Positions 9,958-54,771 of a stretch of DNA of 64,000 nucleotides are shown here, piece by piece. The position numbers were made by a program, and so were the translations under genes. The DNA is from Octopus vulgaris (lineage: Eukaryota). Under the pieces are notes generated by a model. The model was not told the origin of the DNA. It did no database searches and saw only the letters and a program-made list of their open reading frames with translations. The stretch spans positions 61,938,001-62,002,000 of the forward strand of contig OX597824.1 of NCBI GenBank assembly GCA_951406725.2, read 5' to 3'. Within the stretch, counting starts at the first letter, position 1; every line of letters starts with the position of its first letter.

Positions 9958-10904
9958 GACACATGACACACCCAAATGTGTACGTGTGTGTGTGTACATG
10001 TATATATTTAGAATTATCGTTATCATTATTACTATATCTTTTACTATATCTTCATAATCTAAAGTAACCCATTGAACATCGTTTGTGATGACTTTTATGA
10101 CTTGCATATCTAGAGGATCTCAACAAAGTCACGTTTAATATGGGTAGATTGTATTTTTTGCATATAGCTTCAGCACGATCCACATACAAACATTCGAAAT
10201 TAGGAAATTTCAAAAGGGGAAGTGAATTTACATGCGGATCGGTATACTATGTTTATTTAAGATATTTAAGTTTAATCATGATGGGACAAAGTGATCAACA
10301 TTAAAATGAATTGTATCGATTTCAGTACTAGAATGACATTTTTGTATCAGCGTCGAAAGTATGACAAAGCCGAGAGGTCTAGGATATGAGATTTGGCCGC
10401 GAAGTTATTTAATCGATAACTGAATGCATTTTATCAAACGGTCACCCTATTTAATTTCCTCTCAACCATCGGTATCCAGAACATACATACAAACATCCAA
10501 CTGAAATGGGATCGTGCTGTACAGACTGGGACTGATATGGTCTACGGAATGACCATGTCGATCTATACGGTATTTGAATTTGAAACGGAATGCGATAAAA
10601 AAATTATAACACTTACTCTTTACTCTTTTACTCTTTTACTCTTTTACTCCTTTACTTGTTTCAGTCATTTGACTGCGGCCATGCTGAAGCACCGCCTTTA
10701 GTCGAGCAAATCGACCCCAGGACTTATTCTTTGTAAGCCTATTGTTTATTCCATTGGTCACTTAGCTGAACCGCTAAGTTACGGGGGCATAAACACAACA
10801 GCATCGGTTGTCAAGCGATGTTGAGGGGACAAACACAGACACACAAACATATAGACACACATACATACATATATATATACATATATACATACATACATAC
10901 ATAT

Positions 10905-11327
10905 AACTAATGTAGGATAAAATTTTTTTCGGGAAAAAAATTTCATCAAAAAGTACCTTTAAAGGTTAAATTTATAAATAAATTACCATATAAGGTCAAA
11001 AGAAAAATTAACCATTATAATTTATGCGTCTCGAAACAAACCGATAGAAATTTCTAAAAAAATTATTACCGTATTGGACCAATTTCGGAGTTAATTCATA
11101 AGAATTTTCTCCTCTTCAGCGGCAAATACGCGAGATATAAGTGAAATACTTACTCATATCCATGGAAAAAGCAAACACCAAGTCCTGAGCAGACCTAAGT
11201 ACCCCAAATATATCCAAAATAGAAAATCTTCGGCACGTCTCGAGACACGTGTGATTCGAACTAGAAACACTCACAGAGTGATAGAATCCGGAAGTGAAAA
11301 CTAATCAATTTACAACTAATGTAGGAT

Positions 11328-11332
<5 letters not shown>
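10905..11332 (-). mobile_element. 409-bp terminally redundant non-coding element carrying a hammerhead ribozyme (retrozyme-like or Penelope pLTR-like)
   Basis: 19-bp direct repeat aactaatgtaggataaaat at 10905-10923 and 11314-11332; flanked by TA repeats; hammerhead inside. Confidence 0.7.
11070..11130 (-). ncRNA. Type I minimal hammerhead ribozyme, canonical core
   Basis: Minus strand reads cgtatttgccg CTGAAGA GGAG aaAATTC ttat GAATT aa CTCC GAAA ttg GTC c aatacg. It has the core, a perfect stem II, GAAA, a GUC site and distal stem I cgtatt/aatacg. Confidence 0.75.
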
Positions 11333-11417
<85 letters not shown>

Positions 11418-11899
11418 TACGACGGGTTGCTTTCAGTTTCTGCCTACCAAATCCACTCACAAGGCTTTAGTCGGACCGAGGCTATAGTAGAAGACATTTG
11501 CCCAACTGAACTTGGAACCATGTGATTGGTAAGCAAGCTACTATCACACAGCCACTCCTGCGCTTATATATATTTTGTACAATGCGTCGCTGATTCCACC
11601 AGCAGTGATTTTCCTGCATGTATGAAGCCAACGACGTTGACATTGCAAACTTGATCAATCTGCTAGAAACAATAGTCATATTGCATTGTAACACTTACAG
11701 TGAGAACGTCAGTCGATGAGGTTGATCTCAGAAGTAGTTTAGATATATGACAATAAGGTCATAGGTTGGACGATTTTTATTATAGGTCTGCCTGATCAGA
11801 GCCGACCTGGAGATAAAATAAAAACGATCGTAGATGGAACACCTGTTTGATTGAAGCTGGTTAGGAACTTAAATTATTAACGTGCACACATTTATGAAC

Positions 11900-18405: not shown

Positions 18406-18888
18406 TTTACTTCCTTTTTTTAATTTTCTACTGAGTTAAAGGATTTATATCAAAATATCTCTAGTCGAAACATTTGTACATATGTGTGTGTGTGTGCGTG
18501 CGTGGGTCTGTGCGTTTGTGTGTACATATAGATATATATGTGTATTCGATTTCTTCTCAGTTCATTTCGGGCTGAGATAACACACGTAACATTTCTGCTA
18601 CTCCATTACACCTTTGAGCTAAAGTGAAAAAAATTCATTAAACTTCTTATATAGTTCTGAAAGCTTGAAATAAAAATAAATATCTAATATGGGTACAATG
18701 CTTCGCTGTGTGAAATGTGGGATTGGATATTGTAGACCAGAGAATGTAATTTCCCCGTCGCCATGTTTAGTAATTGATGTAAATGAAACGAAAAATACGC
18801 TATCGCACAGGTATTTCGCCTGAATTAATAACAAAATTATCATATCCAAATAATAAACAGGGAGGATAAATAATGCACCTAACATCCC

Positions 18889-18981
<93 letters not shown>

Positions 18982-18996
18982 CATCTATCTATCTAT
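18889..18996. repeat. (ATCT)n microsatellite, 5' flank of the Tx1-like insertion
   Basis: Direct reading. Confidence 0.95.
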
Positions 18997-20150
18997 CTTT
19001 CCCGCAGCTCGTCTCCATGACCGAACTGCAGTCGTGGATCAAAAAGAGGCCGAGGAAGGGCGAATGGCACCGCGAGTGTCGCGTTGCTCTCAAGCAACTC
19101 TGCCGTCCTGGGTCGACCTTAAGTGACTTCAACACAACCAAAGCATTCTATAGGGGTTTAGTGGAGGGGAGGTACGACGACGAGCTCGGGGCGAACCTGG
19201 ACGTCGACGAGGAGTACCTGACCCGCCTGTTCAGGACGACTTTCGGGCCAGGGCCCATGGACAACTTCCAGAGATCCCTGGCATGGCAGTGCTACCGAGA
19301 AGCGCTACCCGTTCGGGATAAGCTCTACAGACACGGCTCGAGAAACACGGGGCCGACCTGCCCGAGATGCGGTCAGAGCGACGAAACCGTTCTGCACGCA
19401 CTCGTTCAGTGTCCAACAATTTCCGACCTGTGGGCTTATGTCGAACAACTGCTGTCACGTGTGGGACGAGTCGGTTTATCAGCTGAGTCTATCGTCAATA
19501 TTGTCACGCCTCCTTCCTTCAAACGGGAAGGAAGAGCTATTTTCATCATCCTTGTGGCTATGGCGAAAGAATGTATCTGGTGGACGCGTCTGAAAGGATT
19601 GGAGACAAACACTTTCCTCTCTGGTCAATCTCTCATCAACTTCTTCAAGTACCACTTGAAAAGGAAAGTGAGAGTAGAGAGGCAAGTTTTGTCTAGCGAA
19701 TGTTTTAAAAAAGATGGGTGAATGTAGCAAGAATGGCACGTATGAATGACGAAGCCACCTTGAGCATAGTCCTATGAACCCAGAAATCGAAAACAGAGAG
19801 TTGCTTATTTAAAAAAAAAAAAAAAGAAATATAAAATGTGACTTCATTGACCGAGGTTACCGTGGTCTTTTCCGTAGGCTTTTCTTTCCACGGGTAAACC
19901 TCACCTGTCCTCCCCTTTACACTTCATATTGACATTTCTGTGATAACGATCCCTATTGATCAATTTTTTTTTTTCCTCTCCCCCTTTTTTTTTAACCCCC
20001 CTTTTTTTTTGTCCTCTTTCTCTCCTTTTACGATCCCTTTTGATCGAAACTCCCCCTTCCTTTTTTTTTTTTTTAAACCTTCAAAATAAAAGCTCTACCT
20101 TGTAATTTGTTCTATCTGTGTGCAGTCCTGTGTGGCTAATAAAGAAACAT
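18997..20150 (+). mobile_element. 5'-truncated L1/Tx1-clade LINE: ORF2 C-terminus (zf-RVT) plus 3' UTR
   Basis: W...REALPVRDKL..HG...CPRC..SDETVLHAL.QC zinc-binding motif. A 1-nt shift in the A-run near 19710 restores KRWVNV...IVL* (stop 19777). T-rich UTR, aataaa, then (ATCT)n. Confidence 0.85.
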
Positions 20151-22172: not shown

Positions 22173-22253
22173 CATATATATATGTATGCATACATACAAA
22201 TACGCATAAACATATAGCTATGTATGAATCATAAAATTAATTTGTAACATATA

Positions 22254-23081
22254 CGAGGGGCTACCCAAAGGAAACCAGAACTTTGTAACGTTAGTTTAAT
22301 CAGTTTTACATGTTTGCACTTTATCGCCTTCAAATTTTTCTTCATTTGAAGCAATGCATGTGACCAGACGTGTTTACCACTGTTTGAAGCAGTATTGGAT
22401 CTCTTGCGAAGTGATGATTTTAACACCTCTGTCGTTTTTTCATCACCTCTTCCACATCTGCAAATTCCGTAGCAACATTTTTCATCACCAGTAATGACCT
22501 TCGAAAATAGATCCGGATCAAATCCCAGCTGTTCTTTTATTTCACGACAGTCATTCAGTCGTGACTGCTTTTGATTTTCCGTGAGCAAGGGTGGCACACA
22601 TTTTGTTGGAACGCCATTTCATTCGTAATTCCTCACTTAAAACTCGTTAGAAGGAGCTCCAGGATACACAAATCATATCAATAAGTCCGTCAATGTTTGC
22701 GTGACCGTACTTCAAGATCAGTTCATGACTTTTTCCTGATGATTTCATTCTTTCGAGAGATCGACGGTCGACCTGAACGAAGTTCGTCTTCAGCTAGAAG
22801 TGATCATTTCTAAAGCGTGTAAACCACTCGTTAACTTGTGTTTTTCTCATGGCATCATCCTTATAAGATGTCTGAAACATGACAACTATCTCGGCCGCTG
22901 TCTTTCCCGGCAATAAACATGATTTCTCGGAAGCATCACGTGTCAGTACGACTGCAGAGAACAACACCGGGGGCATACTGATGCTTGAGGTTGCATCAAG
23001 TGACTTCTAGCGGTGGAAACCCGAGCAGCAACGGGCTCATCTCATAGAGAACGTTTCCAGTTACCTTTGGTTACCTTGCTG
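22254..23081 (-). mobile_element. Internally deleted mariner
   Basis: TIR cgaggggctacccaaaggaaacc and a degenerate partner; GKTAAE..MRKTQVNEWFTRF and KVITGDEK. Confidence 0.85.
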
Positions 23082-43659: not shown

Positions 43660-44845
43660 TATAAAATAAAATATGGTCCGTTGTCTTCTGCTGAACCTGG
43701 GTCATCCCTTAACCCTTGGGTCACAGCGAGTCCTCATCTCATGGAGAGTACACGGCGTAAAATATGTGCGGAACCTAGTAACACTATTTTCGGAAGTCCC
43801 CACGTTAACACTGCAAGGGAGTTTGTTCAGCTGCTTATCAAGGCCCTTTTTTATTCGCCCTAACGCTCCAATCACCACTGGTGCTGTGTTGCTTTTCATT
43901 CTCCACATCTATTTCTTGGTCTTAGTACTTAAATAACTTCGAAATTTCTCTAATGGACACATTTCTCTCTGATGGTACTGATGGTACTATCATTAAGCAT
44001 TTTTTATTCTTCCCATCTTTGATGATTATATCAAGCCTGTTTGATTTGATTTCTTTATCGGTGTTGATTGGCATGTCCCAGAGTACTGTTACATCACCTT
44101 TTCCCGTCACAGTTTCACGTTTATACTGGTACCATCTTTCTTAAGTTGGAAGCTGGTAGAGTTTACATATCTTCCAATGGATATATTGCGCTACTCTATC
44201 GTGTCTATGAATATATTCGGTTTTTGCAAGCGCTGTGCATCCAGTCAAAATGTGGCCTCCTGTTTCATTCTACTCATGACACATTCTGCATTTCGGATCA
44301 GTGCCACCGTTTATTATTTTGTTTTGGTAATCCTTGTTTGCCAAGCGTTGATCTAGTGTTGCTATGATAAAACCGGTTTCAGCCTTCAGTCCTGAGCTCT
44401 TCATCCATACATGAGTGTCTCATTTTTCTACGTCTGGTTTGTTCACTCTACATTGGTATCGGCCATGCATCCGTTTTTCTTGCCATCATTTCTTTGCTCT
44501 TCTGGGTTACTTTCTCCCTCACCTTCATCCTAGGTTCCTCCGTCATCAGTTGTTTCTTAAACGGTATATCGAGTATAGCTGGATTATTTTATCATGCTGG
44601 TGCACAAGCTTCATTAGAGGATCTTTTGACTGCTCAAGATATGTATTTAATCCAGCAGTGGTGCTTTTGTAAGATAATTCTAATTGAGCTAGTGCCCTTC
44701 CTCCCTTGATTCTCGGTAAATAAATCCTGTTCACATCCACTTTTGGGTGATTCATTCGAGCCATGGTTAGTCGTTTTGCTGTCTTGGAGTCTAGCTTCTT
44801 TATTTCGCTCATTTGTCAGTTGATCATGTTCAAATTGTAAGCTAC
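43660..44845 (-). pseudogene. Decayed 3' part of an R4/Dong element
   Basis: LDSKTAKRLTMARMNHPK...YLPR..GGR, GLKAETG, LWDMPINTDKEIKSNRLDII, PVVIGALG; TAA-like tail at ~43650. Confidence 0.9.
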
Positions 44846-45064: not shown

Positions 45065-45620
45065 AATGCCCTGATGCAGTACCAGGCAGTAGCTCTCATG
45101 CTTTGGATCTTAACTGATTGGAAGTGTTATCATGTACATTGTTTTGTCTTGGTATAAAAGATGGGCTACAGCAAATATTCTGCTGAATAGCACAGATTTG
45201 CTTGTCAGTTGTTTGACCGTAACCAGTTGAGCATGTTCATTAGTAGCTGACGATATGTGCATCTCTGATCATGAGCAGAAGTAGTGGGGGAGCATCATAG
45301 CCGTGTATTGAAATGAATTCTTACAGGTTTGGATAATTCACCTTTAGAACATGTGTGGTTCGTTCAACACGCTTAAGAAATCCATATTCAGGGACCTTTT
45401 GAGCGGAATGTTTTACTCGACCAGAAGAAAATTCTAACTCGGCCCCACCTGCATGGTCATGTGCTGTTTAACTTCTTATGGGATCAGCATGTCTCGCACA
45501 TATGATTGTGATGCATGTGCCTAGTATACTCTTATCAGACGGGTAGTCATGATGTGTATGCTGGGCTTCATATATTTTATCCTAGTGTCACTTTGATGGC
45601 ATGCACTGTTCTCTCACTCA
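45065..45620 (+). mobile_element. ~550-bp non-coding TAA-associated element, copy A
   Basis: Reverse complement of 49548-50098 over its whole length; (TAA)n on both sides. Confidence 0.85.
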
Positions 45621-45641
45621 ATAATAATAATAATAATAATG

Positions 45642-45695
<54 letters not shown>

Positions 45696-45701
<6 letters not shown>

Positions 45702-48551
45702 TACAATATGAAAACTATACTTGATATTGATGCCACCATAGAAACCATCAAACAAAAGGTATCTGCCAAAGCTGCCCGCATAGCGAGGTATGAAAAGCGT
45801 GTTAGATTTTTCAAGGACAACAACATGTTCAAAAATAACACCAAGAATTTTTACAGGAAGATAGGAAAAACAGCGTTTACTGCAGGGTCTGTACCATCAA
45901 AAGAAGAAGTGCAGAGATTTTGGAATAAAATCTGGGCAGAAGAAAAAACACACAACGAAAAGGCCCCCTGGATTGACAGAATATCTACAGAACTGGACCC
46001 CTTAGAAGAGCAAAAGTGGGAGGGTGTCAAGGTAGAAGATACAAGATCTGCTCTCAGGAGGTCAAGCAAATGGAAGTCTCCAGGAAAGGATAAAATTCCT
46101 AACTTCTGGCTGAATGCCTTCCCAGAGAGCCATGAACTGCTAACAGAACTGTACAATGATGTTTTGCAACACCCTAGTAGGATGCCTCCTTGGCTAGTTA
46201 ATGGGTTAACATTCCTGCTTCCAAAAAGTGAAGAAACAAATGAACCAAAAAACTATAGACCCATAACCTGCTTAACAACTATGTACAAAACACTAACATC
46301 TGTCCTGACGGAATATACCTATAGTTTTTTAACAGACAGCAGCATATTCCCTAATGAACAGAAAGGATGTAAACGTGGATCCTACGGCTGTAAAGACCAA
46401 CTACTCATCAATAAGATGATCTTAGAAGATTGTCACAAACGACACAAAAACTTATCAATAGCCTGGATAGACTATAAAAAGGCTTTTGATAGCCTACCAC
46501 ATAGCTGGATTAGGAAATGCCTTGAAATGTATAAGATAGCACCAACTCTGCGAAACTTCTTGACTGTAAGTATGAGATCATGGAGAACCACACTAACTCT
46601 GAACAGTGACAGTGAATCCCTAAATGCTGGTGATGTAAACATTTCGTGTGGCATTTTCCAGGGTGACTCACTGTCACCACTCCTCTTTTGTTTATCCTTA
46701 ATACCTCTCTCAAAGCTGCTCAATGACGCGCAGTACGGGTATAAAATGTTTGATAAAAATATAAATCATCTCGTTTACATGGATGATTTAAAGCTTTTTG
46801 CAAAAAATGATCAACAACTCAAGGGCTTACTAGCGATAGTCAAACAATTCAGTGACGACATCAGAATGCAATTCGGCCTCGATAAATGTGCAAAGGCTAC
46901 CTTTATCAAAGGAAAAATGACAGAAACATCTAACGTTAACCTTGACCAACAGAATGTCATAAAAGAACTAGACCCAGCGGAGAGCTACAAGTACCTAGGG
47001 GTAATTGAAGGGGACGGAATAAGGCATTCAGAGATGAAGGAAAGGATCAGGAGAGAATGCTATCGAAGAGTGAGAGCAATACTCAAGACAGAGCTGAATG
47101 CAAGAAACAGGATCGAAGCAATCAATGCATTAGCTATACCAGTCGTGACTTACAGTTTCAATATTGTTAACTGGTCAATTACTGAAATATGTCAGCTCGA
47201 CAGAAAAATAAGGAAACTGTTGACAATGCATAGAATGCACCACCCTAAGGCAGATACAGAACGACTCTATCTGCCAAGAAAAGAGGGAGGCCGTGGTCTT
47301 TTGCAACTGGCAATAACAATGAAGATTGCTACAATTGGCCTAGACACCTACCTGAATAACTCTGAGGACTGGATGCTAAAACTTGTCTCAAAACATGAAA
47401 ACAAGAAAGCATCATACTCAGTCACAAAACAGGCAAAGGAATATCTAAGTGAATTCCGAATACAACCAATTTCGGAATTAGAGATAGATATACAAGAAAC
47501 AAGCACAGAAAAAGCTAGGCGCATGAAAACCCGTGCCAAAACTGCGGCCTTAGATATTCTGAATAATAAATGGCAAGAAAAACCTCTCTATGGCAAATAC
47601 CCAAAGAGAGCGAATAATGCAGATATCGACAAAGCCCTGACCCATCAATGGCTAATGGCCTCTGGCTTAAAATCTGAAACAGAGGGGTTTATCATAGCAG
47701 CTCAAGATCAATGCCTACCAACAAGAAACTACCAGGCCAACATATTAAAGATCAGAAGCAGTCCAACGTGTCGTGTATGCAAGCAACAAAATGAAACCAT
47801 TGACCATGTGGTCTCCAAGTGCAGTTTTCTAGCGCCTACAGAGTATCTCAACAGGCACGATAGAGCTGCACAATATATTCACTGGGTAATCTGTAGAAAC
47901 CTGGATTTGCCCCATGAAAAAAACTGGTGGGAACACAAACCACCCCCAGTGCTTGAAAATGACCACATCTCACTCCTCTGGAACTTCACCATTCAAACTG
48001 ACAGGAAGATAGATGCAAATAGGCCAGACATCATATTGAAATACTTCAAACAAAGAACATGCCTCCTCATTGATATGACTGTCCCAATCAATATAAACGT
48101 ATCTGTCAAGACCTACCAAAAACTGAGCAAATATAAAGATCTTGAAATAGAAATCAGCAAAATCTGGAAGCTGAAGACTAAAACAATACCTGTTGTCATA
48201 GGTGCCCTGGGAATGATAGCAAAAGGGGCTGATAGCTACCTAACTCAGATACCAGGAAACCCAAAAATGGCAGAAGTTCAAAAGATAGTGCTCATGGGAA
48301 CTGCACATATCCTACGCAAAATACTCTCTAAGTAATCTCAAGGTTTAAAACAAACATAATTTTCGGTTTAAAAAAAAAAAAAAAAAACCTTTTTTTTTTT
48401 TTAGACATTCATTAGTACAACATCCCCACCCCCAAATATATGACACACTAGGCATAACAACAACATGAACTTCCAACCCTGTTGTCTCTTGAGGTCTCTG
48501 GGTGAGACTTGGAGCCAACTTGTACAAATATAAAGCAAAAGTCAAACATAG
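45696..48551 (+). mobile_element. 5'-truncated, young R4/Dong-clade retrotransposon inserted in (TAA)n
   Basis: Uninterrupted ORF plus ~215-bp 3' UTR, flanked by TAA arrays on both sides. Confidence 0.93.
45708..48335 (+). CDS. Reverse transcriptase + CCHC zinc knuckle + restriction-like endonuclease (R4/Dong clade), ~875 aa from the first ATG, N-terminus missing
   Basis: YRPITCL, WIDYKKAFDSLPH, GIFQGDSLSPLLF, YMDD, YKYLG, CRVC..H..C, RHD, NRPD..D..K..KY. The poly-Ile start in the track is translated TAA repeat. Confidence 0.93.
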   Translation: MKTILDIDATIETIKQKVSAKAARIARYEKRVRFFKDNNMFKNNTKNFYRKIGKTAFTAGSVPSKEEVQRFWNKIWAEEKTHNEKAPWIDRISTELDPLEEQKWEGVKVEDTRSALRRSSKWKSPGKDKIPNFWLNAFPESHELLTELYNDVLQHPSRMPPWLVNGLTFLLPKSEETNEPKNYRPITCLTTMYKTLTSVLTEYTYSFLTDSSIFPNEQKGCKRGSYGCKDQLLINKMILEDCHKRHKNLSIAWIDYKKAFDSLPHSWIRKCLEMYKIAPTLRNFLTVSMRSWRTTLTLNSDSESLNAGDVNISCGIFQGDSLSPLLFCLSLIPLSKLLNDAQYGYKMFDKNINHLVYMDDLKLFAKNDQQLKGLLAIVKQFSDDIRMQFGLDKCAKATFIKGKMTETSNVNLDQQNVIKELDPAESYKYLGVIEGDGIRHSEMKERIRRECYRRVRAILKTELNARNRIEAINALAIPVVTYSFNIVNWSITEICQLDRKIRKLLTMHRMHHPKADTERLYLPRKEGGRGLLQLAITMKIATIGLDTYLNNSEDWMLKLVSKHENKKASYSVTKQAKEYLSEFRIQPISELEIDIQETSTEKARRMKTRAKTAALDILNNKWQEKPLYGKYPKRANNADIDKALTHQWLMASGLKSETEGFIIAAQDQCLPTRNYQANILKIRSSPTCRVCKQQNETIDHVVSKCSFLAPTEYLNRHDRAAQYIHWVICRNLDLPHEKNWWEHKPPPVLENDHISLLWNFTIQTDRKIDANRPDIILKYFKQRTCLLIDMTVPININVSVKTYQKLSKYKDLEIEISKIWKLKTKTIPVVIGALGMIAKGADSYLTQIPGNPKMAEVQKIVLMGTAHILRKILSK

Positions 48552-53487: not shown

Positions 53488-54771
53488 TGTAGATCGGCTG
53501 AAAATTTCATTGGTTGAACAAGACACTCTCATGGAATATGACCAAATGAGGGTTATGTTGTATTATAGCCCCTCTTGCAGTTCACACACATCTTCCATCA
53601 GTTTTGCAGACTATGGATCCTCTTGGTCAAGAAGCTTTCATTCTGTCGTCAAAAAGGTCAACACCGGATATGACGTCATCATCATTGCGATTCGGACTAG
53701 AAGCCAAGTATTGTTTCACGTTGGAGAATAGGTGATAGTCAGATATGGCAAATCAGGTGAATAGGATCAGTGATCAACCAATTCAAAGACCCTGTAATGC
53801 ACAACATCTATCAAAACGAATGACCCGTTTGCAGGAGCATTGTCCTGCTGAAACTATACAACTTTCGTCAGGTTTTCTGGGCGTTTGGACTTGATAGCCT
53901 TTCGAACTGCTTTGCCAAGTTGGTATAGTACTCCCCATTAATCGATTAATGGCATGGACCCTTTGAAATTAGTGAATAGTCGTAAATTCTTTTGCATCCA
54001 AACAAAACTTAGATCATCACTTGCTGTGTAGACGAAACGACCATGACATTCTTTCGATCAGGTGTGCAGGGGTGTCTCTACTGCATGGATTGTCACTTCG
54101 TCCCCAACTCAAATTGAAGATACATATCACAATATACATCCTGGCTGAGGAAACGTTCAGGTAAACCAGCTGGATTTGTTCCAAACAATGTTAGATTTCC
54201 CTTTGATTTGTTCAACCTGGTGCGCCTTTGAAGGCGTGAAAAGTGGCAACCACCGAACAGAGGTATCCGTCATCCCAAGTTCCTTATCCACAATGCGATC
54301 AGCTCCTTTATAGGAAATTCTAGTAGCACTATTTGATTTATTGTTAATTACCTGTCATACATTGCATGTGGTGAATATGATCAATGTTTTTCATGGTGGT
54401 GGCCATTGCAGCACGTTCAGAACTTTGGTTACCTTCAAAAATCTACATTCATCTCCTGAAATCAACTGCGCCCTTTTTCCCAGTTGATAACGCTGGAGCC
54501 TCATCCCCTAATGTTAGCATGCCAGCATGAGCGTGTTTGGGAGTTAAATTCTTTTTCTACAGATATTTGCTGACACCACGATGCATATATTTTGTCCATT
54601 TTCAAGAGAGGTTGCTACTAGTTACTTTTGAACTCTTCTTTGAAGCGTCAGATGTCAATTTACTTGGAAAGAAACAAAACAGTTATTATTAAGAGTTGAA
54701 AGTAATGCATACAAAATTTCACAACCCTATCACTACTCTGTCAGCCTATGACGTCTTCAGCCCACTCTCGC
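53488..54771 (-). mobile_element. Near full-length decayed mariner
   Basis: Ends ggctgaaaatttcat / atgacgtcttcagcc; QQDNAP and YSPDLP.SDY on the minus strand. Confidence 0.85.

Follow-up and report, generated by a model that had tools for sequence, protein, structure and literature searches.

A non-LTR retrozyme family of Octopus vulgaris, likely mobilised by Penelope-type elements

In a 64,000-nucleotide stretch of the Octopus vulgaris genome (contig OX597824.1; hereafter the window), a SINE is split by a short insert that starts and ends with the same 19 bp and carries a hammerhead motif, which raises the question of what kind of element this is and how it was copied into place. The repeat is exact, has a period of 409 bp, and occurs at exactly two places in the window (10905-10923 and 11314-11332), with no third even when up to three mismatches are allowed; none of 100 shuffles held two matches to the 19-mer. 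The initial annotation read the locus as a retrozyme-like, non-autonomous hammerhead retroelement in (TA)n, a description that the family, the fold and the (TA)n ends reported below bear out. By the features that can be tested, the element is a non-LTR retrozyme, and it is likely Penelope-mobilised, with a putative circular RNA step. The insertion and its host are laid out as follows.

10646..10904 (+): left half of the host SINE and its CA/TA linker, the target
10905..11332 (sense strand -): whole insertion, a deletion-shortened unit of 409 bp plus 19 bp of the next unit
10905..10923 (-): 3' copy of the 19-mer, adjoining (TA)n at 10905, which is site A, the distal of the family's fixed 3' ends
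10905..10977 (-): the 'tail' from site B (about 10978) to site A, 73 nt here
10916..10947 (-): predicted hairpin of 14 bp, just 5' of site A
10949..11064 (-): three private deletions relative to the family, of 15 bp near 10950, 43 bp near 11010 and 3 bp near 11064
11314..11332 (-): 5' copy of the 19-mer, with which the upstream partial unit ends; the read-through junction lies at about 11314, and the copy is 5'-truncated at 11332
11333..11565 (+): (TA)n tract and right half of the host SINE

The insert is nested in the SINE as annotated, sitting in its (TA/CA)n linker, and no inverted arm is seen at 10905..11332. Uninterrupted copies of this SINE among the fetched loci have a linker of mostly a few tens of bases that lacks the 19-mer. 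The core motif of the 19-mer is found in three of 47 half-to-half pairings (some of them counted twice), twice from the window and once from L152, which is an independent insertion of the same element into the same SINE; the absence of the 19-mer from other SINE copies, noted in the initial annotation, holds for the uninterrupted ones and fails at L152, which itself carries the element. Insertion into (TA)n masks any target-site duplication, and the 19-mer is not such a duplication but is element-derived, as had been proposed, being the family's own end. A longest-frame scan of a natural near-dimer found no frame above 73 codons, in agreement with the view that the insert is non-coding.

A unit of 409 nt did not survive comparison with other copies. 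The family period is 471 bp, and 409 arises from deletions private to the window copy, which is short of 43, 15, 3 and 1 bp relative to the family unit. Microhomologies of 4-5 nt are present at the two larger deletions (43 and 15 bp), and the junctions of the three larger deletions are absent from all others of the 294 fetched loci; the locus L002 is 97% identical to the window insertion across 428 aligned bases. The tail is 73 nt here, against 88 nt in the family, because of the 15-bp deletion. The window copy is an arm that ends at site A and is 5'-truncated 19 nt into a second unit, and other copies continue past one unit by tens to hundreds of bases. Because the 3' ends of the family are fixed and its 5' ends scattered, as described below, the 19 nt are uninformative as a footprint: the 'one monomer plus 19 nt' that had been taken as diagnostic of a circle is simply this copy's 5' truncation point.

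The motif within the insert is a type I hammerhead on the minus strand, with the following parts (a slash between bases marks the cut).

11066..11125 (-): type I hammerhead, from motif, fold and covariation
11125-11120/11071-11066 (-): stem I, UUGCCG/CGGUAA, directly against the core
11119-11113 (-): core CUGAAGA
11112-11087 (-): stem II, GGAG/CUCC with the AAUUC/GAAUU extension
11086-11083 (-): GAAA
11083-11080/11076-11073 (-): stem III, AUUG/CAAU, near-palindromic, with the loop GUC at 11079-11077
11072/11071 (-): predicted self-cleavage site AUA/C, after A17 of the AUA triplet

The CUGAAGA core, the extended stem II and the GAAA are all where the initial annotation had placed them, and its cut at GUC (11077/11076) is replaced by one at AUA/C, GUC being a variable stem III loop. 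We surveyed 69 hammerheads from 51 of 53 loci chosen without regard to the ribozyme. CUGANGA is kept in 63 of the 69, and AUA/C in 51 of the 58 copies that could be parsed, in which the loop is GUC in 15, GAC in 25, GGAC in 14 and something else in four. Across the 69 copies, which span two subfamilies about 80% identical, the fold pairs in 97.1% of cells, compared with 26-47% in slid-register controls, and changes on both sides affect seven of 19 base pairs, spread over all three helices; these compensatory changes amount to a few subfamily splits, not independent events. The GUC register, as we reconstructed it, was rejected, with helix I pairing at 83% and helix III at 75%, and three bases left between stem I and the core. 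The sequence thus presents a CUGANGA and GAAA core, three helices and an NUH triplet 5' of stem I, the traits by which type I hammerheads are recognised, and self-cleavage is predicted at AUA/C. A fold kept across subfamilies about 80% identical suggests selection on cleavage.

The catalytic fold has a predicted energy of -12.2 kcal/mol, 1.1 above the minimum of -13.3; when the ribozyme is folded freely on its own, the z-scores are weak (-0.1 to -2.1) and the minima non-catalytic, and we do not count free folding as support. Because stem III is near-palindromic, a dimeric form of the ribozyme may be possible. The Rfam scan, a check that the annotation had recommended, returned no hammerhead at the gathering score or at E values up to 10, only microsatellite-driven noise, so that the case for a ribozyme is made by its motif, its fold and the covariation. 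A generic pattern for the hammerhead core has ten matches in the window, with 4.4 expected; the nine further places (among them 22751-22793, 44511-44549 and 54717-54760) are candidates by this core pattern.

The insertion belongs to a family of several hundred non-coding 471-base elements. A first look at the 2.8-Gb genome (227 contigs) gave 3089 candidates for the unit, 40 of which were scored; a 23-mer at the 5' core has 244 exact matches, site A followed by TA has 464, and the junction pattern has 170, of which a few are ends. The unit has a GC content of 0.32 (32%) and a longest frame of 73 codons, and folded as a circle it reaches a z-score of about -6 against 60 shuffles. A second subfamily, about 80% identical (L013:2513-3006 and L213-L242), has changed stems that still pair and the same two ends.

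To describe the insertion architecture we used 79 insertions, chosen by the ribozyme core and by no other feature, that came from the first 100 among the 244 core matches; repeat hits within an insertion, and some places already represented in earlier sampling, were excluded. The right-hand end is site A in 40 insertions, site B (which in the family lies 88 nt upstream of site A) in 28, and some other position in 11; TA adjoins 65 of the 68 ends at A or B. The copies are thus not circular permutations, the first of two arrangements that the annotation had suggested looking for: 68 of 79 right-hand ends lie at two fixed sites, while the 5' ends are scattered, two of the 124 inner (5') ends coming within 5 nt of the predicted cut, where 2.9 would be expected. 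The second arrangement, tandem multimers in TA repeats, is seen in the form of partial tandems and dimers, with ends that mostly abut TA. Two whole hammerheads stand on one arm at nine of 51 loci (the window copy itself has one), and no arm among the 79 insertions is longer than two units.

An inverted arm is present in 44 of the 79 insertions. Of the 30 insertions whose two outer ends can both be assigned to A or B, 29 pair one A with one B (binomial p about 3e-8); in a further 14 inverted insertions at least one outer end is neither. Arms of the same insertion differ at 28 of 219 diagnostic sites when in tandem and at 32 of 320 when inverted, versus 48% between insertions (133 insertions), and arms of one insertion have 22-26% of rare variants in common, versus 4-5%; the window copy lies below the identity filter of this comparison. 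Such sharing fits a single RNA species having served both arms, and gene conversion or a homogeneous tandem source could also produce it. One insertion (L212, G000:C3:56556000-56564500) exists as an inverted duplicate, its two copies separated by 4.7 kb of repeat-rich sequence that contains no Penelope frame.

These features recall Penelope-like elements. Endonuclease-positive members form partial tandems with a head-to-head inverted arm and a one-ended tail, according to the accessible text of PMC8557442 and PMC3846280. In vitro, in the part of PMC11167929 available to us, both strands of AT-rich DNA are cut and then extended by a Penelope-like protein, whose two internal initiation sites on the RNA delimit the tail; hammerhead-dead mutants insert normally there, the main substrate being unprocessed RNA. 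The same portion of that report describes start sites without a strand difference and an absence of primer-RNA homology, unlike sites A and B of the octopus family, which resemble the TA target. The octopus insertions, as read from their sequence, have two fixed 3' ends, a one-ended tail, an inverted 5'-truncated arm and partial tandems, the combination seen in Penelope mobilisation, and from this architecture we infer that a Penelope-type (Neptune) protein likely mobilises them in trans.

Potential donors of such a protein are encoded in the genome, which has young elements with intact 781-aa reverse transcriptase (RT) and GIY-YIG frames and a second family with frames of 775 codons. Two of three Neptune-type families have many intact frames (775-781 codons), and all three (L091-L100, L244-L267 and L268-L292) end in (TA)n at two sites, with family-specific tails of about 36, 32 and 60 nt; the label Neptune follows from the cysteine linker described in the available part of PMC8557442 rather than from a tree. 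Their 3' regions carry hammerhead-like motifs with altered cores, and separate insertions of the unit lie beside two Neptune copies.

None of these examined elements has the unit as its end. The unit has no significant homology to the ends of Neptune families A, C and G, the three families whose ends were compared. No partner ending in the unit emerged from a GIY-YIG scan (best 150 of 6136 candidates scored), from protein searches for two more families, from the junction-pattern loci, from the second subfamily or from the odd-spacer loci L043 and L212. Among 30 junction-pattern loci, 24 remain within the unit downstream of site A until beyond position 240 or until an end site is reached, six are ends or stop early, and in none does the unit lead into a Penelope frame; tblastn found scattered older Neptune fragments near seven of 141 unit loci and no Penelope match in the window. 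The element is thus non-autonomous, as annotated, with no ORF in the unit and none joined to the examined copies. The ordinary pseudo-LTR that had been named as the counter-case, with fixed ends and a full Penelope ORF attached, is matched in its fixed ends, while no copy examined has the ORF.

A fragment beside a Neptune copy led to a very young non-coding sister family of 482 bp, which we describe from two stretches of it; the family is represented at L293:632-1113, L294 and L251:603-714. Over the tail region, identity among the 40 places that score best is 99-100%. The 3' region is homologous to the 471-bp unit (E 1.7e-8), and outside it the homology is weak, with a score of 92 versus 69 +/- 11 in shuffles. 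A hammerhead-like fold lies at the same position, with a predicted cut at AUC/U; because of that weak homology, we treat it as positionally equivalent and do not count it as covariation. In its core U replaces C3, and stem II has a C-A mismatch at its base, alterations that weaken the case for efficient cleavage being required; the catalytic fold is 3.4 kcal/mol above the minimum. The sister family also has inverted arms, and its 28-mer has 228 exact matches, the first 100 listed including a tetramer with a spacing of about 485 bp (G000:C1:149028443-149029923). Diverged relatives, 69-82% identical to the 482-bp family (L012:2530-2816, L235:2225-2384 and L056:49-380), suggest more waves of the element.

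The reading we favour, with modest confidence, is that of a 5'-truncated hammerhead element inserted by a Penelope (Neptune) RT-endonuclease acting in trans, probably on a self-cleaved and circularised monomer. A copy with two hammerheads would be transcribed, and the RNA would cleave at AUA/C, possibly as a dimer through the palindromic stem III, its monomer being ligated into a circle. The Penelope protein would nick both strands of (TA)n and start reverse transcription internally on a single RNA species, using site A for one target strand and site B for the other; each cDNA would halt at a variable point, sometimes beyond one full turn, and the two would be joined head to head. In the window, an A-primed cDNA would have made one turn plus 19 nt, and the B arm would not have been retained.

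On family-level grounds, a circular template appears plausible and likely. In its favour we count the arms that cross two ribozyme sites without stopping (the nine of 51 loci), the shared arm variants and the self-pairing unit; these, the lack of a 5'-end pile-up at the cut and the sister-family tetramer are also counted for a single repeating template. Weighing against it are the normal insertion of hammerhead-dead mutants in vitro, the altered core of the sister family and the limit of two units per arm among the 79 insertions. In contigs from four runs guessed to be RNA, 28-30 of 30 unit bins are covered and some contigs bridge the junction, in a comparison with neither a silent control nor read ends, and this coverage indicates neither transcription nor circles.

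The strongest competitor keeps the same element and the Penelope machinery and takes as template an uncleaved linear tandem transcript of a multimeric source, with the hammerhead dispensable or serving another step; we give it a substantial chance, short of even. Tandem sources do exist, in the dimers and the sister-family tetramer, the youngest family has a non-canonical core, and all of the end and arm statistics would suit a homogeneous multimer equally well; the hammerhead was moreover dispensable in vitro, in the portion of PMC11167929 at hand. Against it, internally primed products would be shorter than their source in each generation, making the family dependent on rare master arrays, whereas a circle would regenerate multimers. 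The observed arms, none over two units among the 79 insertions, give no sign of such arrays, and the fold kept through subfamilies about 80% identical suggests that cleavage has been selected.

That the units are truncated pseudo-LTRs of an unsampled autonomous Penelope element strikes us as unlikely. Fixed ends, a tail and inverted arms are ordinary traits of Penelope pseudo-LTRs, as described in the accessible parts of PMC8557442 and PMC3846280, and our genome searches scored the best candidates only and compared ends in three Neptune families, not in Naiad or Poseidon; yet the junction loci stay within the unit in 24 of 30 cases and never run into a Penelope frame, just scattered older Neptune fragments lie near the seven of 141 unit loci, and the ends of Neptune A, C and G lack significant homology to the unit. 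Least credible of all, and in our judgement very improbable, is the original picture, in which copying of a 409-nt circle began at any point and overran by 19 nt, or the view of the 19-mer as a target-site duplication. The window does have a period of 409 and an exact repeat, but the deletions behind that period recur at none of the other loci among the 294 and the family's 3' ends are fixed, while a 19-mer that forms the end of the family unit and is lacking in uninterrupted copies of the SINE is not what a target-site duplication would leave.

Among known systems, the octopus family is closest to the metazoan non-LTR retrozymes, as presented in the available parts of PMC7229834 and of a preprint by Li, Clavereau and Pollet (2026; bioRxiv 10.64898/2026.07.22.740005). 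Both have a short non-coding unit with one type I hammerhead and low GC, head-to-tail repeats, a strongly self-paired predicted circle and co-occurrence with Penelope-like elements; by the defining traits of the class, the octopus unit is a non-coding sequence of a few hundred bases with GC below 50% and one type I hammerhead per unit, and forms head-to-tail repeats with at least two hammerheads. The units of 471-482 nt compare with 150-450 nt in Cervera and de la Pena 2020 (PMC7229834) and 51-972 nt in the 2026 preprint, on the figures in their accessible text. Retrozymes are described there in long arrays, whereas the octopus copies are dispersed partial tandems with inverted arms, fixed A and B ends and (TA)n targeting. 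The octopus family yielded no homologous pseudo-LTR, whereas in Xenopus 24 of 57 families had a Repbase match, nearly always to a Penelope-like element, according to the part of the preprint that we could consult. Coral, mussel and axolotl retrozymes accumulate as circles (PMC7229834, in the sections available).

The other close comparison is with Neptune-clade Penelope elements (PMC8557442 and PMC3846280) and the mechanism of Anolis Poseidon (PMC11167929), which, so far as their open portions describe them, share the partial tandems, the inverted 5'-truncated arm, the one-ended tail, an AT-rich or (TA)n target and a hammerhead upstream of the ends. Unlike these, the octopus unit has no ORF, and its tail of 88 nt exceeds both the 30-40 nt in the published portion at hand and the 32-60 nt of the local Neptune families. 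Penelope hammerheads are minimal variants lacking helix III in the accessible part of PMC7761336, whereas the octopus hammerhead has a full stem III of 3-4 bp. Chlamys elements such as MRC1 are likewise non-autonomous and Penelope-type, with pseudo-LTRs and head-to-tail copies; they differ in generally sharing 3' sequence with an autonomous partner, and most lack hammerheads, in the available text of PMC8557442. Two further classes were considered and rejected: an autonomous Penelope-like element, as an RT and GIY-YIG ORF between pseudo-LTRs is absent from the unit and from joined sequence, and a plant LTR retrozyme, a class whose LTRs carry a type III hammerhead and which makes a 4-bp duplication, as the topology is type I and no LTR structure is present.

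The kind of element is therefore known, and what is unusual is the clear Penelope insertion signature, the long tail and the young sister family. In the openly available papers searched, we found no such cephalopod family and no A-plus-B rule for a retrozyme; a prior entry in Repbase or Dfam is possible. The 2026 preprint holds that retrozymes derive from Penelope pseudo-LTRs, an argument that, in the sections available, is made from co-occurrence and phylogeny in vertebrates; the preprint lists the mechanism as open. Where the published link between retrozymes and Penelope is one of co-occurrence and phylogeny, the octopus insertions themselves carry the Penelope tail and inversion signature, and they obey a countable rule of one A end and one B end per insertion. 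With a young sister family, intact Neptune frames and a published in vitro assay at hand, copying in trans and a circular template become directly testable.

We also put forward, as a tentative idea that we would sooner doubt than assume, that viroid-like circles parasitise Penelope proteins by structure alone and lack sequence homology to every autonomous partner, one circle being primed twice at fixed sites about 90 nt apart, once per target strand. If this were true, the insertions would be a genomic record linking retrozyme circles to a Penelope reverse transcriptase, the one-ended tail and inverted arms of Penelope would reflect coordinated double priming on one RNA, and the near-identical 482-nt family would be active now.

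Other mobile elements are present in the window. At 45597-48335 (+), an open frame of 912 codons (stop to stop) matches RVT_1 (E 9e-28) and, weakly, zf-RVT. It lies between (AAT)n tracts and has the look of an intact non-LTR retrotransposon that targets microsatellites, which we take to be R4/Dong-like. The frame at 18870-19721 (+) is presumably a fragment of a non-LTR retrotransposon, and that at 22229-22618 (-) has what we assume to be the look of a mariner-type transposase fragment.
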